Shown piece after piece: positions 6,566 to 41,384 of a DNA stretch of 64,000 bases. Made by a program: the position numbers and the translations under genes. Under the pieces are notes generated by a model. The model was not told the DNA's origin and made no database searches. It saw only the letters and a list, made by a program, of their open reading frames with translations. This DNA is from Candidatus Shapirobacteria bacterium. Its GTDB lineage: Bacteria; Patescibacteriota; Microgenomatia; UBA12405. How positions within the stretch are numbered: position 1 is the first letter of the stretch; each line of letters begins with the position of its first letter. The stretch spans positions 69,867-133,866 of the forward strand of contig JBAYIT010000002.1 of NCBI GenBank assembly GCA_041665485.1, given 5' to 3'.

Positions 6566-6647
6566 ATAATTACATCAGTATTATATCCTGTTTTAGAAGC
6601 GAATATAATATTAAAATACCGATTTTAAATTTCAAGAAAAACTCATC

Positions 6648-7619: not shown

Positions 7620-7673
7620 CAGTAATACTAATAAAACCAACACAAGCTTTTCAACTCATTTAACTCTATCAAC

Positions 7674-9598: not shown

Positions 9599-10219
9599 AT
9601 CACTCTTTACAGGTTTCATTACCACTTTAATACCATAACACGGGATAACAGATGAAAACAGTACTTCATATAACTCTTGGTAAATCATTTTTTTATTGAC
9701 AATCTTTTCCAATAAATTAAATAAATGTTTTATAACTGGAAAGTAAAATCCAAATGTCAATTTAATGCTACATATCTCAAACTTTTTTATTCCATAAAAT
9801 TCAGGTACTTTTCTGTATAGATTCTTAATACTATTTTTATTAGCATAGTAAAAAAAAGTGTAATATCCAAAATAACGTTTATGAGTCGGGTCAGAATAAA
9901 AATATGGATTTGAAAAATGTGGAACAAACAACTCCAAACTTCCGGATTTTTTTAAAACTCGATGAATTTCAAGAATCAACATGTCAAAATTCTCAATGTG
10001 CTCAAAAAAGCTTTTACATTTAATCAAGTCAACACTGTCGTCAGGCAAAAAACCCAAACCCTCTTCCAAATCAGATACAATATCCACCCCTTCCAAATCC
10101 AATCTATCTATACCTAAAAAATCATCTTTTCTTTTTACTCCACAACCCAATTCAATTGCTAAATACTTTCTCTGTTTAATGTTTTTTAACAGACCATTTT
10201 TGTCAATATATTTTTGCAT
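9590..10219 (-). CDS. class I SAM-dependent methyltransferase (Methyltransf_11-like)
   Basis: LAIELGCGVKRKDDFLGID..DIVSDLE motifs I/II. 209 aa. Overlaps the convergent + strand gene by 9 nt. Confidence 0.65.
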   Translation of the reverse strand: MQKYIDKNGLLKNIKQRKYLAIELGCGVKRKDDFLGIDRLDLEGVDIVSDLEEGLGFLPDDSVDLIKCKSFFEHIENFDMLILEIHRVLKKSGSLELFVPHFSNPYFYSDPTHKRYFGYYTFFYYANKNSIKNLYRKVPEFYGIKKFEICSIKLTFGFYFPVIKHLFNLLEKIVNKKMIYQELYEVLFSSVIPCYGIKVVMKPVKSDLL

Positions 10220-12297: not shown

Positions 12298-12326
12298 CGT
12301 ATTCTTATTCTACTATGACTCATCAA

Positions 12327-13898
12327 CTATTTTATTATCTGGTCACAGCTAATTTTTATTCTATCGTCCATAAATGAAATAGTTATACATTTCTTCTCTT
12401 CAATCAACTCACCCGCAATAAAACCATCAAAAAAACCACTGCCACCTTTTTTTGATATATTGATTAAACTACCGCTTAAATCTCTTTCCAAAAAACTATC
12501 GTATTCCTCAACGCTTTTACCTCTCCACCTAAACCCTAAAACATTTTTTACCCCATAGGCTTCAATGAATCTCTTTATCGACAACACCGATTCATAATCT
12601 CCAGGATCGTCACTTTCGAACAATAGTATTTTTTCTTTATTTTTGTTAGCTTCAGTTACAATCATCTGAACCTTATCAGTAAACAACCTTGTCCTAACTG
12701 CATTATTTCTACCTGCTTCAACAATTACGCCATATCCTACCGTTTTAATCGCTAAAGCCATGGCTACCAACCAAACCAAAGTATATAAACTATCTAACCA
12801 CTTTCTTGTAAACAATATTTCTATCAACCGCTTACCCATATAAAAAATCACTGCCAGCAACATTGGCAACATCAATATCCCCGGATAATCATAACGTGAC
12901 AAAACCGGCCAGTTCCCATTATAAAAAAACACCTGACTACCAATCACAATTACTCCCAATATCACTGTTATTAACAGTATTTTTAAAACACTCCACCATT
13001 CTATCCAGTTTTTTTGGTTATTTCTGTAAATATATAAACTAACCGCTCCAAAGAAAACTGTTATTAAAGTAAAAACCATTTTTAAAAAAATTGGTATCTT
13101 GCCATAAACTCTTACTATCCAGTTTATTAAATTATTCAACCTTCCGCCTGTTTCCACCGAATTTCCGTAAAGATCATAACTATTAGTAGAAAAATATTTT
13201 AGTAACCCAAACCAAATCCACATCTCAAACCCTGTTAACACCAAAGCCACCACCAAAAGACACCAATCTTTATTTTTACCAGTCAATTTATACACTACTA
13301 GTCCCCAAATCGGTAACAATAAGATAAAGAAATTTTCTTTTGTTCCCAAAGCAATCAATCCTCCCACGAAAACACATCCATACCCTATACCACTCTTACC
13401 ACGCATCCACACCCAATACAAACCCATTAAAACCATCGAGGTTCCCAAAACTCCATAAATTTCTGCTGGCCCAAGCCTTGTCCAGATATCTGACCATCCA
13501 GGATATAACAAAGTTACTAGCACTATCCCGACAGCCATGCTTATACCTATCCATTTTTCTAGCAAATATATACCCGTAAACACCATAAATACAAAAAGGA
13601 TAAATTTACTCATATACCACAAAACTGGATTATTCCCCCATAAACTACACTCTATTAAATATACCAACCAAAATGATGGTCGGAAACGGTTCACTTTTCC
13701 GTACTGACCAACTTCAGTACCTAATATTATCCGAGGAATTTCAAACACCGATATTTTTCCATCGTTACCCAAAAACGTCATTATTGCATGATCATCGATC
13801 ACACCCCACTTAGCTCCAAGATTTACACCAATCAAACACCAGCCCACTACTAATGACAATAATAAAATCACCCCATTTTTAATAACCGATCTTTTCAT
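12327..13898 (-). CDS. polytopic membrane protein, probable GT-C fold glycosyltransferase with C-terminal soluble domain
   Basis: 523 aa with more than 10 TM segments followed by an approximately 120-aa hydrophilic C-terminal domain. Sits in an operon with GT2/GT-C pairs. No definitive motif. Confidence 0.4.
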   Translation of the reverse strand: MKRSVIKNGVILLLSLVVGWCLIGVNLGAKWGVIDDHAIMTFLGNDGKISVFEIPRIILGTEVGQYGKVNRFRPSFWLVYLIECSLWGNNPVLWYMSKFILFVFMVFTGIYLLEKWIGISMAVGIVLVTLLYPGWSDIWTRLGPAEIYGVLGTSMVLMGLYWVWMRGKSGIGYGCVFVGGLIALGTKENFFILLLPIWGLVVYKLTGKNKDWCLLVVALVLTGFEMWIWFGLLKYFSTNSYDLYGNSVETGGRLNNLINWIVRVYGKIPIFLKMVFTLITVFFGAVSLYIYRNNQKNWIEWWSVLKILLITVILGVIVIGSQVFFYNGNWPVLSRYDYPGILMLPMLLAVIFYMGKRLIEILFTRKWLDSLYTLVWLVAMALAIKTVGYGVIVEAGRNNAVRTRLFTDKVQMIVTEANKNKEKILLFESDDPGDYESVLSIKRFIEAYGVKNVLGFRWRGKSVEEYDSFLERDLSGSLINISKKGGSGFFDGFIAGELIEEKKCITISFMDDRIKISCDQIIK

Positions 13899-15574
13899 CT
13901 AACCCCTAGATCATAAACTTCAACATAATAACCATTATACCCGATCCTTTCTTGCTTCCCGATAGAATAATTCTTCAAAATATTTTCCATAACCTCACTC
14001 TTTTCCGCCAACCAAGGAACATGAATATATTTAAATGACCTCAATCCACCAGCGTCATCCAACCCACCCAAAATTTTAATATCCTCAAAAAGGTATTCTG
14101 ACCCACTATCTCCGTAAACTATACTATCACCAATCAATTTATTGATTTTTTTAGCTAATTTATCAACAAACACAAACTCAGTGTTATACACCAATCCATC
14201 ATAGTACCCAAATATCGCTGAACTTCGACTATTCAATGAATTACCTCCAAATAATCTCTTGGGTAAAATGTCTATTGATCGAAAAATCTGCCCCAAGAAC
14301 AAAATTGATATTATTGGCAACATTATTCTAATTCTTTTTCCGTCTTTTACTAAATAATTAAATGCTAAACCGAAAAATAATGTTGTAAAAAATACCAAGG
14401 GAACCATATATCTAGCAAAAGTCATTGTAATAAATGTCAGATTAAAAATTAGTAGGCTTACAAAAACAAAAAGGATTACTATAAATTCCTGAAGTTTCTT
14501 ATTTGTCACAAATGAATTAAATTTAATTTCTTTTCTGACAATAAATTTTAATAATACCAATAAAGTAACCGCCGATAATATCCATGAAAAATTTAGCCCA
14601 AAAATCTGAAACAATCTGGTGATTACATTACCCTTTTCCAAACCAAAACAAAAAAGACAGCTATTATTCCACTGAAGTTCCAATTTACCACCCCCAATAA
14701 TTCCATTACTCCAAAAGTTCCCTTTGAAATAAAACCAGTATCCTATCATTAACGCCACTGGCAAAAATATTACCAATAACTTCCACAAATCATTTCTCAC
14801 CACCATTTTTCTTAGATAATTCACCCCAAATATAACTATATTAATTCCCAAAAAAGATAAGTAAATCAACCAACCGGTTTCTTTCGAGAAAATTATCAGT
14901 CCTGAATAAACAATAAAATAAATATATTTCTTGTACAGCCAACTTTCAAACATTAGTACTGTAAAAATAAGCACCGGAAAGTCGATATTAAAACTTATTG
15001 ATGTGGCAATACTCAAAGGATTTAAAGCAAAAATTAGAGTAATCCACAAATTAACAGATTTTCTCTTATTATTAAAATAATTTAAAATTTCATGAAAAGC
15101 CTTAATTGCTAACAATGACAAACACAAATTCCCAACACTTAACCAAATTTTGCTCTCACCCCCAAAAAATTGAGTTATTGCCATTAGGCCTGAATAACCC
15201 ATCGAAGAGTGTCCCAACCAATTGAAATTTGGTAAAAAAGTGTTTATCGTCAAGTCAAAGGACTCAATACTTGAATGTAATAACCTCCAATACCATCCAG
15301 CATCCCATCTTTGGGTGTAATTCAAAAAAGGGATTTGGATTAAACTTCTAATCACTAAAATTACGATTATTCCCAAATTGCCCCTAATATATTTTTTTTG
15401 AATCTTTTTTATTTTCATCATCACAACCACTACTGAAACAACGTTTGAAATCCCAATTAAAATCCAAAACAATAATCCGCGCTCAACCAATCTGACCTTT
15501 TCCAAAGCAAAAGCACTATCAATAAATATCGTCAAAGACACTAAAACATTTGCAATCTGGCTCAAAATTACCAC
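13895..15574 (-). CDS. polytopic membrane protein, possible GT-C glycosyltransferase
   Basis: 559 aa, many TM segments. A QRWDAGWYWRL loop follows TM1. A 4-nt overlap couples it to the neighbouring genes. Confidence 0.4.
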   Translation of the reverse strand: MVILSQIANVLVSLTIFIDSAFALEKVRLVERGLLFWILIGISNVVSVVVVMMKIKKIQKKYIRGNLGIIVILVIRSLIQIPFLNYTQRWDAGWYWRLLHSSIESFDLTINTFLPNFNWLGHSSMGYSGLMAITQFFGGESKIWLSVGNLCLSLLAIKAFHEILNYFNNKRKSVNLWITLIFALNPLSIATSISFNIDFPVLIFTVLMFESWLYKKYIYFIVYSGLIIFSKETGWLIYLSFLGINIVIFGVNYLRKMVVRNDLWKLLVIFLPVALMIGYWFYFKGNFWSNGIIGGGKLELQWNNSCLFCFGLEKGNVITRLFQIFGLNFSWILSAVTLLVLLKFIVRKEIKFNSFVTNKKLQEFIVILFVFVSLLIFNLTFITMTFARYMVPLVFFTTLFFGLAFNYLVKDGKRIRIMLPIISILFLGQIFRSIDILPKRLFGGNSLNSRSSAIFGYYDGLVYNTEFVFVDKLAKKINKLIGDSIVYGDSGSEYLFEDIKILGGLDDAGGLRSFKYIHVPWLAEKSEVMENILKNYSIGKQERIGYNGYYVEVYDLGVR

Positions 15575-17412
15575 TTAGTTATCTTATATAAACAGTAACT
15601 ATCAAAACAAACTTCTTTTGTGGAATTTTTTAACAAATAATCTTCGAAGACAAGCCGAGGCGGAGCCCAATCTTTCCATGTATAACTATTTAAAAAACTA
15701 TTCTTTAGTTCATAATCAATCGTAAAATATTGTATTTTCTTAACTTTCAAAAATTTTGTATATCCCAAACTTTCTCCCGGAACTTCAGTAGAGTACTTAT
15801 TATTATTTACTAAATAATACTTCGCATTATGATTCCAATAATTAAGCACTACAGTGTTTTCAAAATTCTGATTAATATAGTCAGTTACTAAATATGATTT
15901 TCCCATAACTCTGGAAAGATATTCTTTTCTTTCCATTAATCCAAACATTGTCATATTTTCTGAAAGTTTCACAATCGTTAAATTCGCCAACACTTTAGTT
16001 ATACTCAACGGTCTCAACCTATAAACAAAAAATACGATCATAATTATCGCCAATACACTTGTAATTTTCTTACTCAATTTACTTAAAGTAATACTAGCCA
16101 ATATAATTATTACCACCAAAGTTGATAATAAAAATCTAGTCTGATGTGTTATCCAGAAAAACCATATTATCAAATTTACCATCACCACAAGGGACAACAT
16201 CTTTACTTCCATTCGTTTCTGTTGCCCAAAACCTCCAACAAGTGCCAACAAAAAAGCCAACCCCACCACCATTCCTCTAATATGTAAATTATCCCGAATA
16301 AAAGAGTTGTATGGAATCAACAAAAAATTCAACAAATTCCTCTCTCGAACAAATCCTTTAACCGCTCTATCAATTAAATACATTTCTGAATCTGGCAAAC
16401 CTTTATGACCAAAAAAATATGGATATATTGGATTCCCTAATTGAACAAAATTTTTGACATACCAAAACCCACCCATCGCCAAAGCTGCCATAATTGCCAA
16501 AATAGCCTTTTGAATTATCTGTCGTAAACATTCCTTATTTTTCAGAAGATAGTATGTTCCCAATATTAAAACGTATATCGGAATTGTATAAATTGCCGAA
16601 TACTTAATTGATAAACTCAAGCCCCATAATCCTCCAGTCAAAATTAAAAATTTATTTTCTTTTTTCTCAACCCACCACAACATCATAAACAATCCAATAA
16701 CCTCCGTACTCACGGCAGCGGCATCAATATAACCACTAACCGCGTTATCAATTAATTCCACTAGAAAAAACAAAGAAATCCCAGAAAACAACCCTGATCG
16801 TAAACCATACCTCCTCTTTACAAAAGCAACGACAAAAACCACCAACGAAACAAATACAGTATAGTGGAGTGCGTGCATTAAAGAAGTTCCCTGTAGAGCC
16901 AATCCAAAAGCATAAAGTACTTCCATTGAGGCTGGTAAGTTTCCATAAAACAAACCACCAACCAACGGTAGTTTTAACTTACTGTCGTCGACTATTCTAC
17001 TAACTTCTGGTAAATGGTATGCCAATTCATCCCATGCGTGGGGAGGCATAAAACAAACAGTGTAATTTAAAAAAACTAAAATCCCCAACAAATACCACTT
17101 AACATTCCCCACCGTCAATATTTTCCTTATCTTAAAACTATTTTTTAATTCTTTAAATTCAAAAATTAGAACTATTATTCCCAATAAACCAAGATAAAAC
17201 CACAAATACAGCTTTGTAAACCAACCCATTAATCCGATAAATATTAATCCATTAACAAAGAAACCTAATCCGATTAGATATGACAACACCAAATATTCGG
17301 GCTCAAACTCAATTTTGCACTTTATCTTTTCTAAAATTAACTTCCCTAAATTACTTGTAATCAATACAAAAAAAACTAAAAAGAGTGTTACCCAAGCCAG
17401 TTCACTTAACAT
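15568..17412 (-). CDS. GT-C fold membrane glycosyltransferase (ArnT/PMT-like, GT39/GT83 family)
   Basis: 614 aa with more than 11 TM segments. The first extracytoplasmic loop carries the conserved acidic motif PHAWDELAYHLPE (DE motif of the PMT/ArnT family). Confidence 0.65.
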   Translation of the reverse strand: MLSELAWVTLFLVFFVLITSNLGKLILEKIKCKIEFEPEYLVLSYLIGLGFFVNGLIFIGLMGWFTKLYLWFYLGLLGIIVLIFEFKELKNSFKIRKILTVGNVKWYLLGILVFLNYTVCFMPPHAWDELAYHLPEVSRIVDDSKLKLPLVGGLFYGNLPASMEVLYAFGLALQGTSLMHALHYTVFVSLVVFVVAFVKRRYGLRSGLFSGISLFFLVELIDNAVSGYIDAAAVSTEVIGLFMMLWWVEKKENKFLILTGGLWGLSLSIKYSAIYTIPIYVLILGTYYLLKNKECLRQIIQKAILAIMAALAMGGFWYVKNFVQLGNPIYPYFFGHKGLPDSEMYLIDRAVKGFVRERNLLNFLLIPYNSFIRDNLHIRGMVVGLAFLLALVGGFGQQKRMEVKMLSLVVMVNLIIWFFWITHQTRFLLSTLVVIIILASITLSKLSKKITSVLAIIMIVFFVYRLRPLSITKVLANLTIVKLSENMTMFGLMERKEYLSRVMGKSYLVTDYINQNFENTVVLNYWNHNAKYYLVNNNKYSTEVPGESLGYTKFLKVKKIQYFTIDYELKNSFLNSYTWKDWAPPRLVFEDYLLKNSTKEVCFDSYCLYKITKW

Positions 17413-17746
17413 TTTTTACGACCTTCTTAATTGCCATTTCCGAAACCAACTTAGCAATTTGTTTTTGCAATCGATTTATCCTGATATGATTTTCAAACAT
17501 CACATAAGCCAAAATTATCAAAGCCATTACGTTACCGAGATCAAACAAACGAATGAAGAACAGTTCTTTAACCAAGGGCTCTAAATATTTTGGAAAAGAG
17601 GTAATAAACAACAATCCACCCCAGACAGTAACCCACACCATTGCCCCTTTAGCCCCAATTTCCTTTTTCTTCCAATACAAATAAACATTGTAAAGCATGA
17701 AAAAAGAAAAAATAAAGGCAATTAATTGAACTCCCAATATATTCAT
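17402..17746 (-). CDS. small membrane protein co-transcribed with a GT2 (GtrA-like/DUF2304-like role)
   Basis: 114 aa with 2-3 TM segments and a basic C-terminal tail. It lies immediately downstream of a DPM1-like GT2, as in Gtr cassettes. Confidence 0.4.
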   Translation of the reverse strand: MNILGVQLIAFIFSFFMLYNVYLYWKKKEIGAKGAMVWVTVWGGLLFITSFPKYLEPLVKELFFIRLFDLGNVMALIILAYVMFENHIRINRLQKQIAKLVSEMAIKKVVKNVK

Positions 17747-17748
17747 AA

Positions 17749-18420
17749 TTATTTTATGAAGAACCAGTAGGGGATTTGGGTTAAAATTTTCATCGCATCA
17801 AAAAGCGACACCCCTTTGTACTTATCAATGTAAATTGTATCAACCTTTAGTTCCTTAAAGGCAATTTTATTTTTCCCCACCTTGGTTGCCATTTCCGTTT
17901 CAATCCCATACCGCGTCGAATTCCATTTAATTATTTCGTAAACCTCCTTTCTAAACCCCAGATAACCACAAAGTAGATCTTTTTTCTTAATTCCAAATAA
18001 AACATTAACTAAGTGGGCCGCAAAAATATTCCCCAACTTTCTGATTAGGGGCATTCCCTTATTTAACTCTCTGTACCCAAAAACTACCGGGTAGTCAGCC
18101 AGACATTTCCTAAATTCGGGAATGTATCTCGGGTTATGTTGGCCATCGGCATCTAGAAATAACACCGCTTGAGCCCCTTTTATAAAGGCGTATTTTGCCC
18201 CGGTCTTCATTGCTGCTCCCTTGCCTAAATTAATCGCGTGCCTTAATAGCGAAATCTGATGTTCTCCGGCAAAACTCTTGGTTAATAATTCAAAAGAATT
18301 ATCAGCCGACCCGTCATCAACCACCACCACCTCACCGTCATGTATCTTCAAAACTGCTTCAACCGTATTTACCGCCCTCTTTCCTTCGTTATATACCGGA
18401 ATAATTATTGTTAAATTCAT
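17749..18420 (-). CDS. glycosyltransferase family 2, polyprenyl-phosphate sugar synthase-like (DPM1/GtrB-like)
   Basis: 223 aa. LTIIIPVYNEGKRAVNTVEAV...VVVVDDGSADNS and DADGQH are GT2 DxD/DAD motifs. The small size is typical of GtrB/DPM1-like enzymes. Confidence 0.7.
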   Translation of the reverse strand: MNLTIIIPVYNEGKRAVNTVEAVLKIHDGEVVVVDDGSADNSFELLTKSFAGEHQISLLRHAINLGKGAAMKTGAKYAFIKGAQAVLFLDADGQHNPRYIPEFRKCLADYPVVFGYRELNKGMPLIRKLGNIFAAHLVNVLFGIKKKDLLCGYLGFRKEVYEIIKWNSTRYGIETEMATKVGKNKIAFKELKVDTIYIDKYKGVSLFDAMKILTQIPYWFFIK

Positions 18421-20081
18421 TTGTTGTCAAAATATACCCACTCCATTTGCGGTTGTCCATTAGTAACTTTAATTGTCAATATATCAGCGTAATCTTTTGA
18501 ATCAACTAGCAGGGGAGTCAACTTTAAACAAAGCCAATCTTCACCAACCACTATCGGCTTAAACTCTAAAATCATTTGTCTTTCTCCCTGAACATCCCAA
18601 GGCTTTAAATAACCATGTCTATATATTTTTTTACACTCACTATTCATTATCTGATACCGATAGGGGACTATTATCTTTTTGTTTCTGTTATCCAAGTTTA
18701 ACGCCAACCCAGAAATATTTTTCTCCGCCACCTCTTTTAATAAATTTGTTTCTTTGTCGATCAATAATAACTTATCTGCCGGCATTTTTAACTCTAATTT
18801 ATTTACTGTATTTCCCGACCAATCAAAATACCGATTCCATAAACTATTTCCCATATTTACTAACACCCCAACTAAAAGTAACCCTAATAATATGTTTTTA
18901 AAATAAACCATCAATCCACTAATTAGCACCAACCACAATGGCACCAACGGCAGCCAGTAACGCCCCTGTATTCCCTCCACACTACTATTCCCTGGGTAAG
19001 ACCACATCAGATACATCACCAAAGTTGTCAAAAAAGTTACTAAAAATATCACCCCACCGATTACCACCAATTCACTTAATTTGATTTTATTCTTTAAGTC
19101 TTTGGCCAGTCTAGCCACCACAAAAACCGCCAATATTACAAATGCAAAATATAAATAATTATTTATCATCGGCATATTTCTCCAACCCATTACCCCAACC
19201 ATTTCCTCAAAATGGGGCAAGAATTTTTCTACCCAAGTATCTTTAACTACTTCCAAGAAATATATTAGATCATTTTTGATTACTTCAAGCTGTAATTTCG
19301 GATTAACAAAAGTCGGATAATTATTTTCTCCTTTGCCCAATTTTCCCGTTCCTAAAACCATCACTGTTACCAGTCCAATTACTATAATTTTTCGTCTGTC
19401 TAACCCAAACAGTAGTATTAACGGCAAATAAACCGGCTTAATTATGCTAATTAGCAATACTATTGCATAAGCCAGCCAACCTCTGTGCTTACTAAACCAC
19501 AAGGCTGTTAGTGGCAACACTGAACCCAAAATTACCACGTCATAGCTATAGGCTGTAGCCTGATGGACCACCATTGGCATTAGAGCGTAAAACCAGAGCA
19601 AATATTCAAATTTTTTATTAATTATTTTTAGCCCAATCTTAAGCATTAAAAGCAAAAACAAAAATCCAAACAATCTACCGGCATAAAAAATCACTGCCGG
19701 CTGATTAGTCCAACTCGTAAGCCATACACCAAGAGAATTAGGAATATAACCTAAAAAGTTCAAACCACACCCTCCAATATTCACTGTTTCTTTTAAATCA
19801 TCTTTCGTCCAACTTCTATTAAAATCAATCAAACCAAGCGGAAATTTTTGGTTTTCCAGTAGCACTTTCTCGAAATTAAAACTTTTTTGTACATCTTCGT
19901 AAACCTTAGGAATAATAAAATGGCCATTTCGACAAAATAATTGCCCGGAACTTAAAGCCACCGCTCTCGTAAAATGAGCCGTCTCATCAAACTTTTGAAA
20001 CGGCGGTAAACCAAGGGTCAACAACAATCCTTCCGCCAAGAGAAAAACCACCAAAAACAATCTCATTATTTTTCTAAACAT
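18417..20081 (-). CDS. GT-C fold membrane glycosyltransferase (ArnT/PMT-like)
   Basis: 554 aa, polytopic. Loop 1 contains FQKFDETAHFTRAVALSSG, a DE..H..R motif as in PMT_2/ArnT-like enzymes. A large C-terminal periplasmic domain is present. Confidence 0.5.
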   Translation of the reverse strand: MFRKIMRLFLVVFLLAEGLLLTLGLPPFQKFDETAHFTRAVALSSGQLFCRNGHFIIPKVYEDVQKSFNFEKVLLENQKFPLGLIDFNRSWTKDDLKETVNIGGCGLNFLGYIPNSLGVWLTSWTNQPAVIFYAGRLFGFLFLLLMLKIGLKIINKKFEYLLWFYALMPMVVHQATAYSYDVVILGSVLPLTALWFSKHRGWLAYAIVLLISIIKPVYLPLILLFGLDRRKIIVIGLVTVMVLGTGKLGKGENNYPTFVNPKLQLEVIKNDLIYFLEVVKDTWVEKFLPHFEEMVGVMGWRNMPMINNYLYFAFVILAVFVVARLAKDLKNKIKLSELVVIGGVIFLVTFLTTLVMYLMWSYPGNSSVEGIQGRYWLPLVPLWLVLISGLMVYFKNILLGLLLVGVLVNMGNSLWNRYFDWSGNTVNKLELKMPADKLLLIDKETNLLKEVAEKNISGLALNLDNRNKKIIVPYRYQIMNSECKKIYRHGYLKPWDVQGERQMILEFKPIVVGEDWLCLKLTPLLVDSKDYADILTIKVTNGQPQMEWVYFDNK

Positions 20082-29465: not shown

Positions 29466-30593
29466 ATGCGACTTTTGTTTGTTTCTCACATCCACCCACC
29501 TGGAGTTGACGGTGGCTCAAAAATAATCTGGAAACTAAGAGATTATTTCCAAAATAACGGCCACCAAACCTTGTCCCTGGCCACCAATCTTTATTCTACT
29601 GATGATTTTGTTAGATCCAACCCTAAAGCTAACAAGTTTACTCAAAACAATCTCTTTCTTCTTCCGACCTATCGCCTCCATCGCCGTCTCCCCAAACCGG
29701 TTTTTAAGATTGCTTCTTTTATCAAGTTTCTAGTTTCTTGTTTCAAGTTCCGCCCTGATTTCATAGTTGCTGGCCCACTCCCCACTACTATTATTTTTTA
29801 CGCCATCTTAATAAAGTTTTTAACTAGAGCAAAATTAATTTTTATTCCTTGCTTCCACGAAAAAGATTCAGAATTCACCTCCCTTTTTATCATCAAAGCC
29901 CTCCGCCAAGTCGATCTTCTCTGCACCCTCACCCACCACGAAGTTTCTGTTCTAACTAGGAACTATCATCTAAAATCTAACAACTGTTTTGTATTAGGCG
30001 CAGGCATCGACCACTCTTTTCTTATCAGTAAATTCACTAAGCCCAAAAAACAAAATTTATTATTTCTTGGCAACTTTGCCGCTCATAAACAAGCCGAACT
30101 TCTCATCAAATCATTTGCTATTCTCTTAGCCAAATATCCCCATCTCACCCTTACTCTAGCCGGCCAAAAAACTCTCTACTACCCTAAAATTTTAGCAACT
30201 CTCAAAAAACTCCCTCTCTCAATTCGTCAAAAAATTAAAATATATCCTAAACGCTATAGCACTAGCGCACTAGCGCACTTCCTATCTAATTGCTCTTTTC
30301 TAGTTCTACCCTCAATTCACGAAAGTTTTGGTTTGGTTTTCATTGAGGCTCTCGCCCGTGGCCGAGCGGTTATTGGCGCCGATATTGGACCGGTTTCGGA
30401 ACTTATTGCCCAAACCGGTGGTGGTCTTACTTTCAAACCCAAATCAATTCCTTCGCTTACTAAAGCCATTTCTAAACTTCTTAGTTCACCCGTTCTTTCT
30501 CAAAAAATGGCCCAAACCGGATATCAATACATCAAAGATCACTACACTTGGGATAAAATAGGGGACAGGCTATGCCAAAAAATCGCATGTTAG
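29466..30593 (+). CDS. glycosyltransferase, GT4-like
   Basis: C-terminal IHESFGLVFIEALARGRAVIGADIGPVSELI is the GT4 E-x7-E motif. Contains an internal 8-mer tandem duplication at 30261-30279. Confidence 0.7.
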   Translation: MRLLFVSHIHPPGVDGGSKIIWKLRDYFQNNGHQTLSLATNLYSTDDFVRSNPKANKFTQNNLFLLPTYRLHRRLPKPVFKIASFIKFLVSCFKFRPDFIVAGPLPTTIIFYAILIKFLTRAKLIFIPCFHEKDSEFTSLFIIKALRQVDLLCTLTHHEVSVLTRNYHLKSNNCFVLGAGIDHSFLISKFTKPKKQNLLFLGNFAAHKQAELLIKSFAILLAKYPHLTLTLAGQKTLYYPKILATLKKLPLSIRQKIKIYPKRYSTSALAHFLSNCSFLVLPSIHESFGLVFIEALARGRAVIGADIGPVSELIAQTGGGLTFKPKSIPSLTKAISKLLSSPVLSQKMAQTGYQYIKDHYTWDKIGDRLCQKIAC

Positions 30594-31036
30594 CATTACT
30601 TTTCATACCATTTTTTTTCTTACTCTATTTTCTATTTTTAAAAAACAACAACGATATCCGTCAAATCCGCTTACAAATCGGTGATAAATCTTTCTCCCTA
30701 GAAGTTGCCTCCGCTATTTGGCAACAAAGCAGGGGCCTGTCCAATCGCTCATCTTTATGCCCAAATTGCGGTATGTTGTTTGTTTTCCCAGAATCCCACA
30801 TTCAAACATTTTGGATGAAAGACACCCTTATCCCTCTCGATATAATTTTTATTGATACATTAGGTAAAATAGTTACTATTCACACTGCCAACCCCCAACC
30901 AAATACACCCATAAACAAACTCAAAACTTATTCCTCAACAAAAAATGCCCAATACGTTATCGAGCTCAATGCCGGCCAAGCAAAACTGTTAAACTTAACC
31001 ATCGGTCAAACCCTACCTCTACCTCTAACTTTATAA
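30572..31036 (+). CDS. DUF192 (COG1430) family protein, secreted/membrane anchored
   Basis: N-terminal TM, then GLSNRSSLCPNCGMLFVF...FWMKDTLIPLDIIFID..G.IV and YVIELNAGQ match the conserved DUF192 core (GMLFvF, fWMkNT.iPLDiiFi). Confidence 0.6.
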   Translation: MPKNRMLALLFIPFFFLLYFLFLKNNNDIRQIRLQIGDKSFSLEVASAIWQQSRGLSNRSSLCPNCGMLFVFPESHIQTFWMKDTLIPLDIIFIDTLGKIVTIHTANPQPNTPINKLKTYSSTKNAQYVIELNAGQAKLLNLTIGQTLPLPLTL

Positions 31037-31057
31037 CTTTCTAACTTTATAACTTTC
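31026..31057 (+). repeat. octanucleotide tandem repeat (taactttN)x4 spanning the DUF192 stop and the RBS region of the downstream GT4
   Basis: taacttta taactttc taacttta taactttc. It ends 11 nt before the ATG at 31069. Confidence 0.75.
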
Positions 31058-31068
31058 AAACTTAATTA

Positions 31069-32187
31069 ATGATTATTGGCATTGATGTTTCCGCCATTCC
31101 CTATGGTACCGGTGTTAGTAGCTACACTCTGAATTTAGTTCGTCATTTGCTCCGTATTGATAAAACTAACATTTACAAACTTTTTTTCTCCTCTCTCCGC
31201 CAGCCCCTACCTCCAGAAATCCAAGAACTTAAAGGAAAGAAAAATGTCAAAGTTTTCCACTTTCGTCTACCACCAACCTTTCTTGAGGTAATCTGGAACC
31301 AGCTTTATGTTTTACCCATCGAGCTTTTTATCGGTAAATGCGACGTCTTTCACACCTGGGATTGGTATCAACCTCCCTCACTTAACGCCAAAATTGTTAC
31401 CACCGTCCACGACCTGATTCCCTTTCTCTATCCTCAATGGCAACATCCCAAAACCATTACTACTTTCAAACGAAAATTTAACCAAGCCACCAGACACCCC
31501 ACCTCTTTTATTTGTGTTTCCCAAAACACCCGCACTGATCTTCTTAAACTATTCCCTAACATAAACTCCAAAAACATTACTATTATCTATGAAGCCGCCG
31601 AAGACAAATATTGCCCCCAAACCAAAGATAAAATCCAAAAGGTTAAAAAAATCTACGGACTCAACTCTTTTATTCTTGCCCAAGGAACTCGGGAACCACG
31701 AAAAAATCTTGATCGACTTATTAAAGCCTTCATTAAGTTCAAAGAACTCCATCCCCAAAACCAGACTGAATTAGCCATTACCGGCAAATATGGCTGGGGC
31801 CAAGATATTACCCACCCCCAACATTCTTATATCAAAATTCTAGGATATATTCCCGAAAAAGATATGCCCTCGCTTCACTCCGCCGCTCTTTGCTTAGCCT
31901 ACCCATCCCTCTATGAAGGTTTTGGCCTTCCGGTTATCAAATCCCTCAAGGTTGGCACCCCTGTTATTACCAGTAACACCTCATCTCTTCCAGAAGTCGC
32001 TGGCAACGCCACCATTTTGGTCAACCCAACCTCCGTCAAAGAAATAACCTTAGCCCTAACCAAAATAATTACCCAAAGCAACCTTCGTCAACAACTCAAA
32101 AGCATAAGTTTGGCTCAAGCTAAAAAGTTTAGTTGGACAATTACCGCCCGCCAAACCCTTTCCCTTTATCAATCCCTAATTAAATAA
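31069..32187 (+). CDS. glycosyltransferase, GT4-like
   Basis: [34 protein letters not shown] is a GT4 motif. Confidence 0.7.
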   Translation: MIIGIDVSAIPYGTGVSSYTLNLVRHLLRIDKTNIYKLFFSSLRQPLPPEIQELKGKKNVKVFHFRLPPTFLEVIWNQLYVLPIELFIGKCDVFHTWDWYQPPSLNAKIVTTVHDLIPFLYPQWQHPKTITTFKRKFNQATRHPTSFICVSQNTRTDLLKLFPNINSKNITIIYEAAEDKYCPQTKDKIQKVKKIYGLNSFILAQGTREPRKNLDRLIKAFIKFKELHPQNQTELAITGKYGWGQDITHPQHSYIKILGYIPEKDMPSLHSAALCLAYPSLYEGFGLPVIKSLKVGTPVITSNTSSLPEVAGNATILVNPTSVKEITLALTKIITQSNLRQQLKSISLAQAKKFSWTITARQTLSLYQSLIK

Positions 32188-32249
32188 ATTTAATAATTTA
32201 ATAATTTAAAATTGACTAAAAATTTAAAATTAAAAATTAAAAATTTCCT
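32188..32249 (+). repeat. AT-rich intergenic micro-repeats (aatttaat x2-3; aaaaatt x2-3) immediately upstream of the GT4 start
   Basis: aatttaataatttaataatttaaaatt...aatttaaaattaaaaattaaaaatt. No obvious purine-rich RBS. Confidence 0.6.
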
Positions 32250-33338
32250 ATGCTGATAGGTATCGACGGCAACGAAGCCAATCAACCAATTAGGGCCGGT
32301 GTTGGCCAATATGCTTTTCATATTCTTTGTAACTTAGCCAAACTTGATCAGCAAAACCAATATCTTATCTATCTTAAAGACCAACCTCTTTCTGATATGC
32401 CCAAGACCTCCAAAAATTGGCATTATCTAGTTTTCGGCCCCAAAAAACTCTGGACTAAGTTTGCCCTCCCCGTTTATCTCTTTACCCACTTCCCCAGACC
32501 TAATGTTTTCTTCTCTCCAAACCAATATTCACCTATCTTCTCTCCTTGCCCCACCATTCCCACTGTTCACGACATTGGTTATCTCACTTACCCCGAACAA
32601 TTTACCAAAAAAGATCTTTTCCAATTAACTTATTGGACCAAAGCTTCTATTTTTCGAGCTAAATACATTGTCGCTGTTTCTGAGTTTACCAAAAATGAGC
32701 TTATAAAAACTTATCATCTTGACCCCCAGAAAATCTCCATCGTCTACAACGGAGTAGACAGTCCCCCAATTACCGATTACCGATTACCAATTACCAAATT
32801 TAAAATTAATCAACCCTTCTTCCTCTCCGTCGGCACCCTTAAACCAAACAAAAATATTCCCTATATACTCGAAGCTTTTTCTTTATTTTTAACAAAGCAA
32901 CCCAACTACCAGCTAGTTATTGCCGGCAAAAAGGGTTGGCTTTTTGACGAAATATTTTCTACTGTCAAGAAATTAAAACTGGAATCTAAAGTTATTTTTA
33001 CCGATTACATCAGCGAAAACGAAAAATGGTGGCTTTACACTCAGGCTAGGGCCACCCTTATCCCCAGCCTTTATGAAGGTTTTGGTATTCCGGCCATCGA
33101 AAGCCAAAGAGTCAGCACTCCCGTTATTGCCAGCAACATCGAATCTTTAAAAGAAATACTCGACAAATCAGCTTTATTCGTCGACCCCAAAAACTATTTT
33201 GACCTAGCCAAAAAAATGCATGAAATCATTAATCCCAAAGTTCGGAAAGAATTAATTACTGCCGGACTTTCCCAAAGTCAAAAATTCACCTGGACAAACT
33301 CTGCTAAAACCTTAATCAACCTCTTTAATCAGTTATAA
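32250..33338 (+). CDS. glycosyltransferase, GT4-like
   Basis: [33 protein letters not shown] is a GT4 motif. A paralogue of 31069-32187. Contains an in-frame heptamer repeat at 32769-32796. Confidence 0.7.
32769..32796 (+). repeat. heptanucleotide tandem repeat (attaccN)x4 inside the GT4 coding sequence
   Basis: attaccg attaccg attacca attacca. In frame it encodes ITDYRLPIT. Confidence 0.75.
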
Positions 33339-34488: not shown

Positions 34489-35452
34489 ACCAATACTATC
34501 TATCATTATCGTTTCCTATAATGTTGCTCCTTTCATTGAAAATTGTTTAAAATCAATTTTTGCTGACAAAAACCTAGATTTTAATGGTGACTCTAAGAAT
34601 TCCAAAACCCCCGCCGAGCTCATCATCGTCGACAACCATTCCTCCGACGCCAGCGTTTCGATCATTAAAAATTTTCAAATTAAAAATTGTTTAAAAATTT
34701 CAAATTTCAAATTAAAAATCAGTCATTCCAATCAAGGTTTTTCCCAAGCCAATAATCTCGGCGTCAAACAAGCCCAGGGCAACTACCTCCTCTTCTTGAA
34801 TCCTGACACTGTCATCCTCCATTCCTCAATTAGCCAATCTCTTGATTGGTTATCTAGTCACCCTGAAGCTCTTGGTTGCACTGCCCAACTTCTCAACACC
34901 GACAAAACCATTCAACCATCAGGTGGCTTTTTTCCCAATCTATTAAATCTCTTTACTTGGTCAACCAACCTCGACGACCTACCCCTGACAAACGATCTTA
35001 TTAAGCCCATTCACCCCCACAGTCCTATTTTTTATACTCATCCAAAATTCTATCTCCAAGACCACTCCCAAGATTGGCTTACCGGCGCCTGTATTCTCCT
35101 CCGCAAAAACGCCTTTGATCAAGTTGGTGGATTTGACCAAGACTACTTTATGTACGGCGAGGAATTAGAACTCTGTTATCGGTTGAAAAAAGTTTTTCCT
35201 TTAAAAAAGTTTTGGTACCTTATCGGCCCTCAAATAACCCATCTCGGTGGCGGTTCATCTGTCAATCGCCTCAATCCACTTATTAATGAATATCATGGTA
35301 TTATCGCTTTCTTTAAAAAACATCAACCCTCTTGGCAATTACCTCTCGCCAAGTTACTAATTAAATTCAACTGTCTCTGTCATTATCTTCTTTATCTTAT
35401 TAAGAAACCGGAAACCGCCAAGCTTTATCAACAAATTTTTTCCCAACTATGA
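34478..35452 (+). CDS. glycosyltransferase family 2
   Basis: ILSIIIVSYNVAPFIENCLKSI...IIVDNHSSD, GFSQANNLG, FLNPDT and YGEELELC are GT2 motifs (DxD, QxxRW-type region). Carries an AT-rich 7-mer repeat insert at 34667-34720. Confidence 0.7.
   Translation: MPVKPILSIIIVSYNVAPFIENCLKSIFADKNLDFNGDSKNSKTPAELIIVDNHSSDASVSIIKNFQIKNCLKISNFKLKISHSNQGFSQANNLGVKQAQGNYLLFLNPDTVILHSSISQSLDWLSSHPEALGCTAQLLNTDKTIQPSGGFFPNLLNLFTWSTNLDDLPLTNDLIKPIHPHSPIFYTHPKFYLQDHSQDWLTGACILLRKNAFDQVGGFDQDYFMYGEELELCYRLKKVFPLKKFWYLIGPQITHLGGGSSVNRLNPLINEYHGIIAFFKKHQPSWQLPLAKLLIKFNCLCHYLLYLIKKPETAKLYQQIFSQL
34667..34720 (+). repeat. AT-rich 7-mer tandem array (aaaaatt/tcaaatt)x7 inside the GT2 coding sequence
   Basis: aaaaatt ttcaaatt aaaaatt gttt aaaaatt tcaaatt tcaaatt aaaaatc. 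It encodes KNFQIKNCLKISNFKLKI at the same linker position as the 38412 repeat in the paralogue. Confidence 0.75.
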
Positions 35453-36828
35453 CTTTTAATCTTTTTCGTCCAATCCTTGCCATCCTCCTTCTTTTTATTC
35501 CCCTATATCCAAAATTCCCCTTGTCTTTTGCTCAAGGCGCTCAAGTCGCTTTTCGTCTTGACGACATTATCATTGCTCTAGTTTTTTTAATCTACCTCGT
35601 TAATCAGATAAAAAACCGATTTCCAATTTTAAAATTAAAGGTGACCTGGGTAATTTTAGCCTACCTTATCGCCATTACTTTAAGTAGTCTTAATGCTTTC
35701 CTAATTTACCAAACCACCCCCACCCATATTCTTCTTCTCCATCTCCTAAGACGTTTTCAATATATCTCCCTATTTTTTGTCACCCTTGAAGCCATTAAAA
35801 CCCGCCGTGATTTTAAGTTTATCTATCTTTTTACTTGCCTTGCCTTTATTGGTGTCTTTGCCTATGGCATTGGCCAAAAATACTTTAACCTTCCCATTAT
35901 TTCCACCATGAACTTTGAGTTCGCCAAAGGCCAACTCCTCCAAATGAATTTTTGGAGTCGAATCAGTTCCACTTTTGCCGGACATTATGATCTGGCCGCC
36001 TATTTAAGTGTCATTTCCGTCATCTTCTTTGGTGTCTTTTTGTCTCAAAAAAACAAACTTTATCGCTTCTTTTCTTTCATCCTTTGGTTAATGGCTTTCT
36101 ACCTACTCACTTTAACTGCCGCCAGAATCTCCACCTTTGCCTACTGGGGCGGAGTCACTCTCCTCTGTCTTCTTCTCAAACGTTTCTTCTGGATTATTCC
36201 CACCAGTCTCTTGGTGGTTCTAAGCATCGTTAGCTCCAAAGATCTTAACCAACGTCTGCTTGCCACCATCCCCAGTATCAAGCCTTATTTTTCCCAGAAT
36301 ATCGCCAAACCAACTCCAGCAACCATTCCCACTATTACCCCAGTTCTTACACCAATTCCAACATCTAAAATCCAAGATCTAACATCTAAGATCTCTCCAA
36401 TACCCACCGTTTTCCGCCACAAACCTGAAGAGTTTCCTCCAGTTGATGCTGACGCCGGCGTTGCCAGAAGTGGCGAAATCCGTTTTAATGTCGAATGGCC
36501 CCGGGCCATTACCGCTTTTAATAAAAATAAACTATTGGGAACCGCCCCCGGCTCTATTACTTTAGCCACCGACAACGATTATCTCCGCAGTCTCGGCGAA
36601 ACCGGACTCCTTGGTTTTGTCACCTTTTGCCTCATCTTTGTTTACTTTTTTATCAATCTAATCAAAAAATCTACTGCCCTCAACCTTGTTTTTGCCACCG
36701 CCATTCTCATTGTCTTGGTCAACGCCATTTTTATCGATATTTTCGAAGCTTCAAAAACCGCCTACCTTTTTTGGATGATGATGGCTGTTTTTTATAAATC
36801 GGAAACTTTAAATGATTCAAAAGGTTAG
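35449..36828 (+). CDS. O-antigen ligase/polymerase-like (Wzy_C-like) polytopic membrane protein with Pro/Thr-rich loop
   Basis: 459 aa with more than 10 TM segments and a large hydrophilic loop (residues approx. 280-370) rich in P/T/I. The architecture resembles WaaL/Wzy. Confidence 0.45.
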   Translation: MTFNLFRPILAILLLFIPLYPKFPLSFAQGAQVAFRLDDIIIALVFLIYLVNQIKNRFPILKLKVTWVILAYLIAITLSSLNAFLIYQTTPTHILLLHLLRRFQYISLFFVTLEAIKTRRDFKFIYLFTCLAFIGVFAYGIGQKYFNLPIISTMNFEFAKGQLLQMNFWSRISSTFAGHYDLAAYLSVISVIFFGVFLSQKNKLYRFFSFILWLMAFYLLTLTAARISTFAYWGGVTLLCLLLKRFFWIIPTSLLVVLSIVSSKDLNQRLLATIPSIKPYFSQNIAKPTPATIPTITPVLTPIPTSKIQDLTSKISPIPTVFRHKPEEFPPVDADAGVARSGEIRFNVEWPRAITAFNKNKLLGTAPGSITLATDNDYLRSLGETGLLGFVTFCLIFVYFFINLIKKSTALNLVFATAILIVLVNAIFIDIFEASKTAYLFWMMMAVFYKSETLNDSKG

Positions 36829-38231: not shown

Positions 38232-39158
38232 ATGACCCCCGACCTATCTATTGTTATTTTGAATTTCAATACCGGTGACTATCTAAAAAAATGTCTTGAA
38301 AGTATCTACCAAAGCCAACTTAAACATCAAATAGAAGTTATTGTTGTTGACAACGCCTCCACCGATGACAGTATCGATCAAGCCAAAAAACTTGATTTTA
38401 AGTCCAAAAAAATTCTAGATTCTAGATTCTTGATTCTAGATTCTAATTTGGGTTTTGCTCAAGGCAACAATCAAGGAATTAAATTAGTCAACCCTCAAAG
38501 TAGATACGTTCTTTTCCTAAATCCCGACACCACCGTCAATTCCGACACTCTCTCTGGCACCATCGATTATCTCGATTCTCACCCTAAAATCGACGCCGCC
38601 ACCGTCAATGTAGTTTTTGTCAAAACCGGCCAAACTCAACCCGAATGTCATCGCGGTTTCCCCAGTCCTGGGAACGCCTTCTTCCACTTTTTTCTTCCTT
38701 TTCTTCCTAAAATCTTTCCCAAATCTAAATTATTTAATGGTTATTTCCTTGGCCACCTTGACTTTAATCAACCTCAAATTATTGACGCCTGTGTTGGCGC
38801 CTTCATCGTTCTTAAAAAGAGGGTAGGGGAGACTGTTGGCTGGTGGTGTCCCGACTATTTTTTCTACGGCGAAGACCTTGATCTTTGTTACCAAATTCAA
38901 CAACACGGTTTTAAACTCTGGTATCTCCCCCAATACCAAATTCACCATTTTCAAGGTATTTCTTCCGGAGTTAACAATGCCACCTCCAAGGCCTCTCGGT
39001 CTACTAAAATAAAAATCGCCAAGGCCTCTACAGACGCCATGAGAATTTTTTATCGCCGAAATCTTCTCCACCATTACTCGCCACTTTCCCAAAAAATAAT
39101 TCTCTTTGGGATTAAATTGCTAGAACTTCAACGCCTTTTCAAAGCCAAATATTTATGA
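38232..39158 (+). CDS. glycosyltransferase family 2
   Basis: Start at ATG 38232. LSIVILNFNTGDYLKKCLESI...VIVVDNASTDDS, GFAQGNNQG, FLNPDT and YGEDLDLCYQI. A paralogue of 34478-35452. Contains a heptamer tandem repeat at 38412-38446. Confidence 0.7.
   Translation: MTPDLSIVILNFNTGDYLKKCLESIYQSQLKHQIEVIVVDNASTDDSIDQAKKLDFKSKKILDSRFLILDSNLGFAQGNNQGIKLVNPQSRYVLFLNPDTTVNSDTLSGTIDYLDSHPKIDAATVNVVFVKTGQTQPECHRGFPSPGNAFFHFFLPFLPKIFPKSKLFNGYFLGHLDFNQPQIIDACVGAFIVLKKRVGETVGWWCPDYFFYGEDLDLCYQIQQHGFKLWYLPQYQIHHFQGISSGVNNATSKASRSTKIKIAKASTDAMRIFYRRNLLHHYSPLSQKIILFGIKLLELQRLFKAKYL
38412..38446 (+). repeat. imperfect heptanucleotide tandem repeat (attctag)x5 inside the GT2 coding sequence
   Basis: attctag attctag attcttg attctag attctaa. 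In frame it encodes ILDSRFLILDSN between the DxD and GFAQGNN motifs. Confidence 0.8.
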
Positions 39159-40273
39159 AACACCTAGTTATTGACGCCCGATGGTACGGCCCCAAACACA
39201 CCGGTATTGGCCGTTATACTCAAAACTTAATTTTAGAGTTAATCAAAATTAAAGACTTTCAGAAAAATATTAAATTAACTCTCTTAATTCACCCGGAAGA
39301 TAAGAAAAACATTCAATCGGAACTTGGATTAGATATTAATTTTGTCACCACCAACATTACTCACTATTCTTTCCTCGACCAGATCATTACCCCCTTTATT
39401 CTTTACCATCTTCAGCCCGACCTCGTCCACTTTACCCACATTGACAAACCGATTCTTTATTTCAGTAAAAGTGTTGTTACTATCCACGACCTGATTAAAA
39501 ACTTTTCTACCGGCCCGGAAACTACCACCAAAAATATCGGTATCTACTGGATCAAACAATTTGCCTATCTTCTAAATAGCTGGTTTTCCATTAAATTCAA
39601 TTCTCTTATTGTTCCCAGTAATTATTGGAAAAATTATCTTATTTCTCATTACCACCTTCTAGCTTCGCAGGTCACCACCACCCACGAAGCCGTCGACCCC
39701 AAATTCCTAAAATTAAAAACTAAGAACTACCAACTAAGAACTAAGAACTATCTCTTATATACTGGCAATCTCTACCCTCATAAAAATCTCGACGTTGTCC
39801 TTCAAACCCTTACCAAACTACCCAATCTCAAACTAAAAATAATTTCCAAGCCTTCAGTTTTTCTCGATCGTCTAAAGGCCACCATTCAAGAACTCCATCT
39901 TCAAAAACAAGTCGAATTTTTAGGTTTCGTCCCCGACAATGATTTTCAAAAAATATATCAAGAAGCCCTCGCTTTTGTTTTCCCCAGTCTCATGGAAGGT
40001 TTTGGCCTACCGCCACTCGAAGCCATGAGCTTAGATTGCCCGGTTATTTCTTCAAATAGTAGCTGTTCTCCGGAAATCTACCAACAGGCTGTCCTTTATT
40101 TTAATCCAAAAGACCCAGATGATTTAGTAAAACAAATTAATCTTCTCACTACTAAGCCCAGTCTTCGTCAACAATTAATTGCCAACGGCTACCAACAAGT
40201 TAAAAAATATTCATGGTCCAAAACAGCCAAACAAACCCTTGCGGTCTATAAAAAACTCTTAAATACTAATTGA
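39155..40273 (+). CDS. glycosyltransferase, GT4-like
   Basis: PSLMEGFGLPPLEAMSLDCPVISSNSSCSPEI is a GT4 motif. Heptamer repeat at 39720-39750. The stop lies inside the heptamer array at 40268-40299. Confidence 0.7.
   Translation: MKHLVIDARWYGPKHTGIGRYTQNLILELIKIKDFQKNIKLTLLIHPEDKKNIQSELGLDINFVTTNITHYSFLDQIITPFILYHLQPDLVHFTHIDKPILYFSKSVVTIHDLIKNFSTGPETTTKNIGIYWIKQFAYLLNSWFSIKFNSLIVPSNYWKNYLISHYHLLASQVTTTHEAVDPKFLKLKTKNYQLRTKNYLLYTGNLYPHKNLDVVLQTLTKLPNLKLKIISKPSVFLDRLKATIQELHLQKQVEFLGFVPDNDFQKIYQEALAFVFPSLMEGFGLPPLEAMSLDCPVISSNSSCSPEIYQQAVLYFNPKDPDDLVKQINLLTTKPSLRQQLIANGYQQVKKYSWSKTAKQTLAVYKKLLNTN
39720..39750 (+). repeat. heptanucleotide tandem repeat (ctaagaa)x4, imperfect, inside the GT4 coding sequence
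   Basis: ctaagaa ctaccaa ctaagaa ctaagaa cta. It encodes KTKNYQLRTKNY. Confidence 0.75.
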
Positions 40274-40299
40274 AAATTGAAAATTGAAAATTGAAAATT
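40268..40299 (+). repeat. heptanucleotide tandem repeat (aattgaa)x4 spanning the stop of one GT4 gene and the TTG start of the next
   Basis: aattgaa aattgaa aattgaa aattgaa aattt. The upstream TGA stop (40271-73) and the downstream TTG start (40284) both lie within the repeat units. Confidence 0.8.
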
Positions 40300-41384
40300 T
40301 CAAGATTGCTATTTTTTTTGATTGGCTCAATCAATGGGGCGGGGCCGAGCGTCTTCTTGGTGACATTTTAACTATTTTCCCCAATGCTAATCTTTATACT
40401 TCAATCTGGGACAAGTCAAAAACACCTTGGTTACCAAGCTCCACCAAAGTCTTTGTTTCAAAACTAAATAATTTTTCTTTTTTTCGCCAAAACTCACCTC
40501 TAAGCCTGGCTCTCCAACCCTTATTCTTGGAACAATTTAACTTTAAAGACTATCAACTAGTTATCTCTCTCACTTCCCAAAACGGCCACTGTCTCCTTAC
40601 TCCACCAGATACAACTTTTGTTTGCTATCACTTAAACCCCAACCGCTATCTTTACCAAATTTCTCACTCTTTACTTAAACATATTTATTCTTTTTACAAA
40701 AAAATAGACTGGATCTTTGCCCAAAGGCCAGACTACTACTTCACCACTTCTCCAACCGTCCAAAATCGAATCAAACAAACCTATGGCCGAGAAGCAGAAA
40801 TTATTCACCCCGGAGTCGACACTGATTTTTTTTGCCCCCCAAAAAACCCCAAACCAGGAAACTATTTTCTCGTTGTCTCCCGTCTGGTTGTTCATAAAAA
40901 AATTGAGCTGGCTATCCGCACTTGTCATCAGCTCAAACAAACGCTTGTTATTGCCGGTACCGGCCGAGACGAAACCCGCCTTAAAGAAATTATCCCCTCG
41001 TCTCCATTTATAAAGTTTGTTGGTCAAGTTTCAGACAAGAAACTATTAACCCTCTACCAAAATTGTCTGGCTCTAATCTGCCCTCAAGAAGAAGATTTTG
41101 GCTTAACCCCACTTGAAGCTATGGCCTGTGACAAACCGGTTATTGCCTACAACCAAGGTGGTATTCCCGACACCATTATCAACCATAAAACCGGCATTTT
41201 ATTTGCCAAACAAACAACCGAATCATTGGCTGAAGCCATTAATTTATTTTTTAAAACTAAGTTCGAAGTTCTAGACTGCCGAAGACAAAGTCTTAAATTT
41301 AGTCGTCGTCGCTTTATGTTAAACTTTACTCATTCACTAAACACAATTCTCCATGATCAACCAAAAATCCAAATTTCTGGTTAA
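40284..41384 (+). CDS. glycosyltransferase, GT4-like (TTG start inside heptamer repeat; start uncertain)
   Basis: N-terminal IAIFFDWLNQWGGAERL is typical of the GT4 N-domain. C-terminal PQEEDFGLTPLEAMACDKPVIAYNQGGIPDTI. Confidence 0.7.
   Translation: MKIENFKIAIFFDWLNQWGGAERLLGDILTIFPNANLYTSIWDKSKTPWLPSSTKVFVSKLNNFSFFRQNSPLSLALQPLFLEQFNFKDYQLVISLTSQNGHCLLTPPDTTFVCYHLNPNRYLYQISHSLLKHIYSFYKKIDWIFAQRPDYYFTTSPTVQNRIKQTYGREAEIIHPGVDTDFFCPPKNPKPGNYFLVVSRLVVHKKIELAIRTCHQLKQTLVIAGTGRDETRLKEIIPSSPFIKFVGQVSDKKLLTLYQNCLALICPQEEDFGLTPLEAMACDKPVIAYNQGGIPDTIINHKTGILFAKQTTESLAEAINLFFKTKFEVLDCRRQSLKFSRRRFMLNFTHSLNTILHDQPKIQISG

Follow-up and report, generated by a model that had tools for sequence, protein, structure and literature searches.

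A heptanucleotide array across the stop/start junction of two GT4 genes in a Shapirobacteria surface-glycan operon is probably a coding-neutral microsatellite

In the window (the whole 64,000-nucleotide stretch of Candidatus Shapirobacteria DNA analysed here), two GT4 genes meet within a perfect heptanucleotide tract, which we interpret as a coding-neutral microsatellite made by slippage at their stop/start junction and not as an ON/OFF switch; we put the probability of this reading at about 0.7. The tract represents a further case of the known heptanucleotide long SSRs, and its notable property is an indel-immune geometry. Both genes belong to a same-strand, tightly packed surface-glycan operon, the other members of which encode an unassigned membrane protein, a PMT_2 protein, a GT2, a Bac_transf priming transferase and a DUF4012 protein. 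The features at the junction are as follows.

39155..40273, plus strand: upstream GT4 gene, 372 aa, Glycos_transf_1 (NCBI name: glycosyltransferase family 1 protein; P0121)
40268..40299, plus strand: perfect heptanucleotide array, (AATTGAA)x4.6, each unit carrying a TGA and a TTG that overlap as TTGA (TRF and direct scan)
40274..40283, plus strand: untranslated gap of 10 nt, AAATTGAAAA, all of it repeat sequence
40284..40286, plus strand: TTG start codon of the downstream GT4, in the third array unit (orthologues and gene calls)
40284..41384, plus strand: downstream GT4 gene, 366 aa (Pfam domain, orthologues and gene calls)

The array consists of four complete AATTGAA units followed by AATT (32 nt, 4.6 copies, 100% matches) and is the sole perfect tandem repeat of at least three copies with a period of 4–12 that a direct scan of the 64-kb window recovered. 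Its TRF score of 64 compares with a top period-7 score of 45 in 40 dinucleotide-preserving shuffles. The upstream ORF ends ACT AAT TGA, with the AAT codon and the TGA (40271–73) falling within the first unit, while a second TGA (40278–80), inside the 10-nt gap, is in frame with the downstream gene and closes that frame on its 5′ side. The final 2.3 units are read as the downstream codons TTG AAA ATT GAA AAT T, the array thus taking in the start codon plus the gene’s first five codons. An earlier note on this DNA, which had placed the upstream TGA and the downstream TTG in one (AATTGAA) repeat, was therefore correct on the layout: the first T of the TTG lies 11 nt past the stop, across a gap of 10 nt. 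Both products carry the C-terminal Glycos_transf_1 domain (117.2 bits in the upstream and 107.0 bits in the downstream GT4; Pfam gathering cut-off 26.4 bits). Because independent JGI (L002) and ENA (L003) assemblies carry the identical junction sequence, it is not an assembly artefact. Elsewhere in the cluster, L002 calls the Bac_transf gene differently; mutation was rejected as the cause of that difference because the sole mismatch is at window position 36187.

On the comparative evidence, TTG 40284 is the true start of the downstream GT4. The earlier note had proposed this codon, and orthologue N-termini, the junction DNA and gene calls from three sources all uphold it, the same 366-aa product being present in NCBI (MFA6518523.1), JGI/IMG and Logan/ENA records. 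It had also observed that neither ATG nor GTG is available ahead of the IAIFFDW peptide, and TTG 40284 is indeed the sole canonical start there. Alignment of orthologues agrees with this N-terminus: L005, the closest relative by protein identity (77%), reads ATG AAG ATT GAA GAT TTA at exactly the aligned codons, and the motif [M/L]-[KDE]-I-x-N-[LF]-K-[IV]-A-I-F-[FY]-D-W recurs widely among the best 120 homologues (for example as MKIENLKVAIFFDW and MKIENLKIALFYDW, the fourth residue being mainly [EKR]). Our junction comparison covered 46 species loci with a scorable junction, in which the start codon chosen is ATG in 24, TTG in 21 and GTG in one. At nearly all of the TTG loci (about 20 species), no other canonical start lies between the motif and the in-frame stop, and the TTG usually stands in the context ‘stop AAA TTG’. 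For annotation, this means that an SD-less TTG start can be accepted as real in this lineage even when it lies within a repeat.

An SD-like core, defined as GGAG, GAGG or AGGA at −20 to −4, accompanies two of the 54 long ORFs in the window, and the downstream GT4 has none; judging from these leaders, translation initiation in the genome appears to be mostly independent of Shine-Dalgarno sites. Leaders of the window’s genes are A/T-rich and G-poor, with G accounting for only 2–6% of bases at −3 to −1, and the stop codons of the 54 ORFs are TAA in 27, TGA in 15 and TAG in 12. No stable RNA fold was found at the junction (z = 0.64), and a search for known RNA elements across the whole window returned zero Rfam matches, no Rfam family and no rRNA or tRNA-like family reaching threshold anywhere in it. 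An internal promoter formed by the TTGAAA boxes was rejected, since two promoter-like matches against 1.7 expected is chance level. The junction has the layout of stop/start coupling (same strand, a 10-nt gap, no terminator or promoter signal above chance), the coupling itself being a prediction from this layout.

To follow the consequences of changes in copy number, the locus was rebuilt in silico with 0.6 to 8.6 units. From 2.6 to 8.6 units, the 372-aa and 366-aa proteins were both identical to the reference, and added units changed only the untranslated gap, which took values of −4, 3, 10, 17 and 24 nt in steps of 7 nt; the predicted series is thus −4/3/10/17 nt for 2.6/3.6/4.6/5.6 units. 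Termination of the upstream GT4 falls in unit 1 throughout, and the downstream GT4 invariably starts at the TTG that lies 15 nt before the TTC codon. Since a TGA and a TTG are present in every unit, and since a length of 7 nt is not divisible by three, the same two proteins result at 2.6 units and above. At 1.6 units (three units lost) the start was gone and only an internal TTG was left, giving a 285-aa downstream product, while at 0.6 units the two GT4 genes were fused in frame into a 733-aa product.

The earlier note had gone on to argue that the gain or loss of a unit would abolish the downstream start or move it relative to an RBS, and that the repeat is a candidate translational phase-variation switch. 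This part of it is not supported by the analysis. The start persists at every copy number from 2.6 to 8.6, so a one-unit change cannot abolish it, and the spacing between start and RBS cannot shift because the genome is almost without SD sites, the downstream GT4 being among the window genes that lack one. The switch itself is not supported either, given the unchanged proteins, the lack of an RBS and the existence of the different gap states in species with both ORFs intact. Like the tract of a contingency locus, the AATTGAA array is uninterrupted over its 32 nt (100% matches); a one-unit change switches expression through none of frame, start codon, SD or promoter signals, and 4.6 units falls short of the length needed for high-frequency slippage, by a threshold taken from the literature on other organisms. 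Contact between a perfect SSR and a start codon does not by itself make a switch; the geometry needs to be worked out first.

Comparison between species gave gaps of the same sizes as the simulation. Among the 46 species loci, the stop-to-start distance is −4 nt in 16, 3 nt in six, 10 nt in three and 17 nt in two; assemblies of different species show these distances as they stand, and neither ORF is disrupted at any of these loci. Such a series follows from an array that tolerates indels, its unit holding both stop and start and its length not being a multiple of three. A positive gap is found at 17 of 21 TTG-start loci versus two of 24 ATG-start loci, an association that may come partly from shared ancestry.

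Within the species, copy number is the same (4.6 units) in the window, in L002 (JGI 3300037810) and in L003 (ENA ERZ27249449), a comparison of low power between assemblies that are 99.9–100% identical. Public assemblies were accordingly set aside as a source of copy-number variation: the four of this species are near-clonal (99.99–100% over 7 kb), and the absence of variation among them therefore has little power. Closer relatives for such a comparison were sought, with none above 73% in the metagenome scan and none above 57% in the GTDB scan. A second species (L008, the same as L117; 73% protein and 75% DNA identity) shows the same architecture, with 4.9 copies by TRF, the same four full units, an AAT TGA stop in unit 1, a 10-nt gap and a TTG start. 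In a third species (L116 and L006), the array runs to 4.6 units or more and is immediately preceded by a TAG stop; in L005 it is degenerate and TGAAGAT-like, the upstream gene ending in TAA, the gap measuring 10 nt and the downstream gene starting with ATG.

The four Logan k=31 assemblies (contigs L001/L004, L006/L007/L116 and L118), which cover three species, all end inside the AATTGAA array, their left and right contigs overlapping by 22 or 26 nt; the JGI and ENA assemblies cross it. These breaks could stem from k-mers shared by co-occurring relatives, from low complexity or from real heterogeneity. As evidence of heterogeneity they were rejected, since the break points fit no simple two-allele de Bruijn scenario worked by hand, and they were treated as technical.

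Heptamer periodicity at the orthologous junction is common in Shapirobacteria, and the unit differs between species, as follows.

L039 junction: ATTAGAA, perfect run of 3.4 copies (4.6 copies at 88% by TRF)
L043, L049, L054, L067 and L071 junctions: AATTAGA
L060 junction: TTAATT[AT], 4 copies
L095 junction: TGAAGA[CT], 4 copies
L096 junction: TAATTCG, 3.7 copies

Stop/start overlaps of 4 nt (ATGA or TTGA) are a form of translational coupling in bacterial operons. Of the 46 species, 16 have a −4 overlap at the orthologous junction, and the AATTGAA unit amounts to such an overlap plus three A’s; the window differs in that the overlap is expanded, leaving stop and start 10 nt of repeat apart. We propose that the AATTGAA unit is a tandemly duplicated TTGA stop/start overlap, in which the upstream GT4 stops at its first in-frame TGA and the downstream GT4 starts at its last in-frame TTG (40284). 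The array was presumably born by replication slippage, seeded by the 7-nt periodicity of TTG AAA ATT G, a string that already makes up 1.6 units and could for that reason have acted as a seed; being neutral for coding, it would then have persisted. Translation of the downstream GT4 would proceed without an SD, from the A-rich unstructured leader and/or by termination–reinitiation from the upstream gene, and the length of the gap may at most weakly tune the coupling of the second gene to the first. The perfection of the tract speaks against full neutrality, as an old neutral array would be expected to decay in the way seen in L005.

Heptanucleotides are the most abundant class of long SSRs with units of 5–11 nt in prokaryotes and are credited to polymerase slippage (Mrazek 2007, as summarised in PMC4679880; also PMC4692102). 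Our array resembles such long SSRs in exceeding chance length and in the enrichment of period 7, and differs from them in sitting precisely on a stop/start junction, in a unit that carries both signals and in a copy number that is neutral for coding. With a unit of 5–11 nt and a length beyond what composition predicts, it falls within the heptanucleotide long SSR class. To our knowledge, Patescibacteria were not part of the underlying survey.

Precedents for a different reading come from known heptanucleotide switches. The AAGACTC repeats of E. coli K1 neuO, located within the 5′ part of the ORF, vary by slippage, the gene being ON only at copy numbers divisible by 3, over a range of 3–53, and OFF in 66% of genomes (PMC13001214). 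Haemophilus influenzae has SSRs of 13–38 units in its hmw1A/hmw2A promoters, as well as an AACAACC tract, 13 bp upstream of a gene for a TonB-dependent receptor, that varies from 1 to 7 units between strains; these tracts exert their effect on transcription, between two promoters (PMC8262952, PMC2651432). Our array shares with neuO a heptanucleotide repeat at the 5′ end of a surface-polysaccharide gene, with slippage as the mutational process, and shares with the Haemophilus tracts a heptamer SSR upstream of a coding region, where those tracts act as an expression ‘volume control’ and not by frameshift. One might accordingly suppose that frequent slippage moves the gap in 7-nt steps that strongly alter reinitiation at the downstream GT4, thereby diversifying the surface glycan of the population. 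The perfect repeat within a surface-glycan operon, the changes in copy number between species, the known switches just cited and the breaks of the four Logan assemblies in the tract would all suit this idea. We nevertheless regard it as unlikely. Whereas the neuO repeats lie inside the ORF, the variable part of our array is upstream of the start, and at 2.6 units or more coding and start codon are always unaffected, so that the gene is ON throughout; there is no RBS to displace; and every gap state has been assembled in some species with the genes intact. The array has only 4.6 units, against 13–38 for hmw and 3–53 (most commonly about 20) for neuO. Unlike the Haemophilus tracts, it lies inside an operon with no promoter signal above chance and shows no strain variation among near-clonal assemblies, and the copy number is the same in this species’ assemblies and in the species of 75% identity.

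Recognition of the repeat in RNA is a slightly less probable alternative still, in which S1, a Csp-like protein or another factor would bind heptamer-periodic, unstructured, A-rich RNA and control translation. TAACTGA repeats, direct and intergenic, occur upstream of SD-less starts in Beggiatoaceae, Cyanobacteria and Bacteroidetes (MacGregor 2015, PMC4679880), and binding of a translation-controlling factor has been proposed for those upstream of SD-less genes in Beggiatoaceae (PMC4679880). Shared features are a forward heptamer with stops in all three frames, in 2–6 copies, immediately at an SD-less start and with no predicted RNA structure, to which may be added that heptamer periodicity at the junction is kept across many species. 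Two differences from the TAACTGA repeats are the sequence of the unit itself and the extension of the AATTGAA array over the start codon and first five codons of the gene. Against recognition, different species carry different units (AATTGAA, AATTAGA, TGAAGAC, TAATTCG, TTAATTA), so there is no conserved recognition motif; many orthologues have a plain ATGA overlap and no array; and, where TAACTGA repeats occur at many loci, the TTGAAAATTGAAAA dimer is confined to the junction within the 64-kb window. Far less probable than either is a mis-annotated junction, with a downstream or non-canonical start or with a single protein made by frameshifting or stop read-through. An SD-less TTG start does look weak, and an array cut down to 0.6 units would yield an in-frame fusion (733 aa), but in the orthologues two distinct genes are present, in many cases overlapping as ATGA; the codon aligned with the TTG is ATG in L005, the N-terminal peptide shows conservation and TGA is a normal stop in the window. 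Read-through cannot join the GT4 genes because the two frames differ, and recoding of TGA or a GT4 fusion was rejected because TGA ends 15 of the 54 genes, the frames differ and the orthologues are separate. A coding-neutral microsatellite thus remains our preferred reading of the tract.

The junction array has counterparts throughout the cluster. The window contains eight period-7 arrays of at least three copies versus 0.42 per dinucleotide shuffle, and all eight lie within the glycan cluster at 29.7–40.3 kb, with zero in the other ~53 kb; a Markov-2 simulation of the cluster alone (29.4–41.4 kb) gave an expectation of 0.09. Their positions are as follows.

29725–29749
32186–32246
32766–32797
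34691–34719
36360–36394
38412–38445
39714–39750
40268–40299 (the junction array)

Across 80 related GTDB loci, 40 period-7 arrays were found versus 6.0 in simulations, and other periods were not enriched, save for a smaller excess at period 6 (11 versus 2.6). This strong and specific excess in the Shapirobacteria glycan cluster is a mutational signature and a more interesting lead than the junction tract, and it fits a bias of slippage towards 7-nt units.

Several of these arrays lie within genes: 38412–38445 in the GT2 (around aa 67), 39714–39750 in the upstream GT4 (around aa 187), and also 36360–36394 and 29725–29749. In such in-gene arrays, a deviating unit occurs exactly where a perfect array would create an in-frame stop (TAG to TTG, TAA to TAC, TAA to CAA). 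In other species, arrays with different units are found again at the homologous sites of the GT2 and GT4 genes, for example ATACTAA/TACTAAA in five copies (L052, L045, L067, L100) and a perfect ATTCAAA x4.4 (L036). When four close species were compared (window 39680–39760 with L005, L116 and L117), the position and length of the array were kept in both the upstream GT4 and the GT2, and the units differed (ACTAAGA, ACTGACA/ACTACCA, CATAAAT). Parallel changes 21 nt apart suggest concerted evolution of a 21-nt (7-aa) repeat. In-gene arrays were rejected as ON/OFF switches, all 29 of those in the 80 GTDB loci lying in intact ORFs. HutP-like (UAG-N4)x3 sites, which we took to be a candidate for the AATTAGA/ATTCTAG arrays, were dropped because the trinucleotide is not conserved between species.

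It is conceivable, though we attach little probability to it, that heptanucleotide arrays in Shapirobacteria surface-glycan genes are lineage-wide selected mutational hotspots, the junction array among them. Equally speculative is the fuller picture of such hotspots, in which arrays occupy gene junctions and conserved GT2/GT4 positions, keeping their position and length while their units turn over in concert. Were this so, the arrays would diversify cell-surface glycans, either as contingency loci of low frequency or as a heptamer-periodic recognition system; they would offer glycan diversity to host-dependent, regulator-poor bacteria and would represent the first case described from the Candidate Phyla Radiation. 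Among the top literature matches, none connected SSR phase variation with CPR bacteria.

Two further junctions in the cluster carry short-period repeats. Between the stop of the DUF192 gene and the GT4 that starts at 31069, a tandem repeat of period 8/16 (2.5 copies, 31024–31063) includes the stop, and about 70 nt of period-7/8 tandem sequence (32177–32246) likewise includes the stop of the GT4 at 31069..32187 and connects it with the ATG of the next GT4 at 32250. Base composition also changes along the window, with a GC content of 0.32–0.35 in 1–20000, where genes are mainly on the minus strand, and of 0.37–0.42 in 20001–64000.
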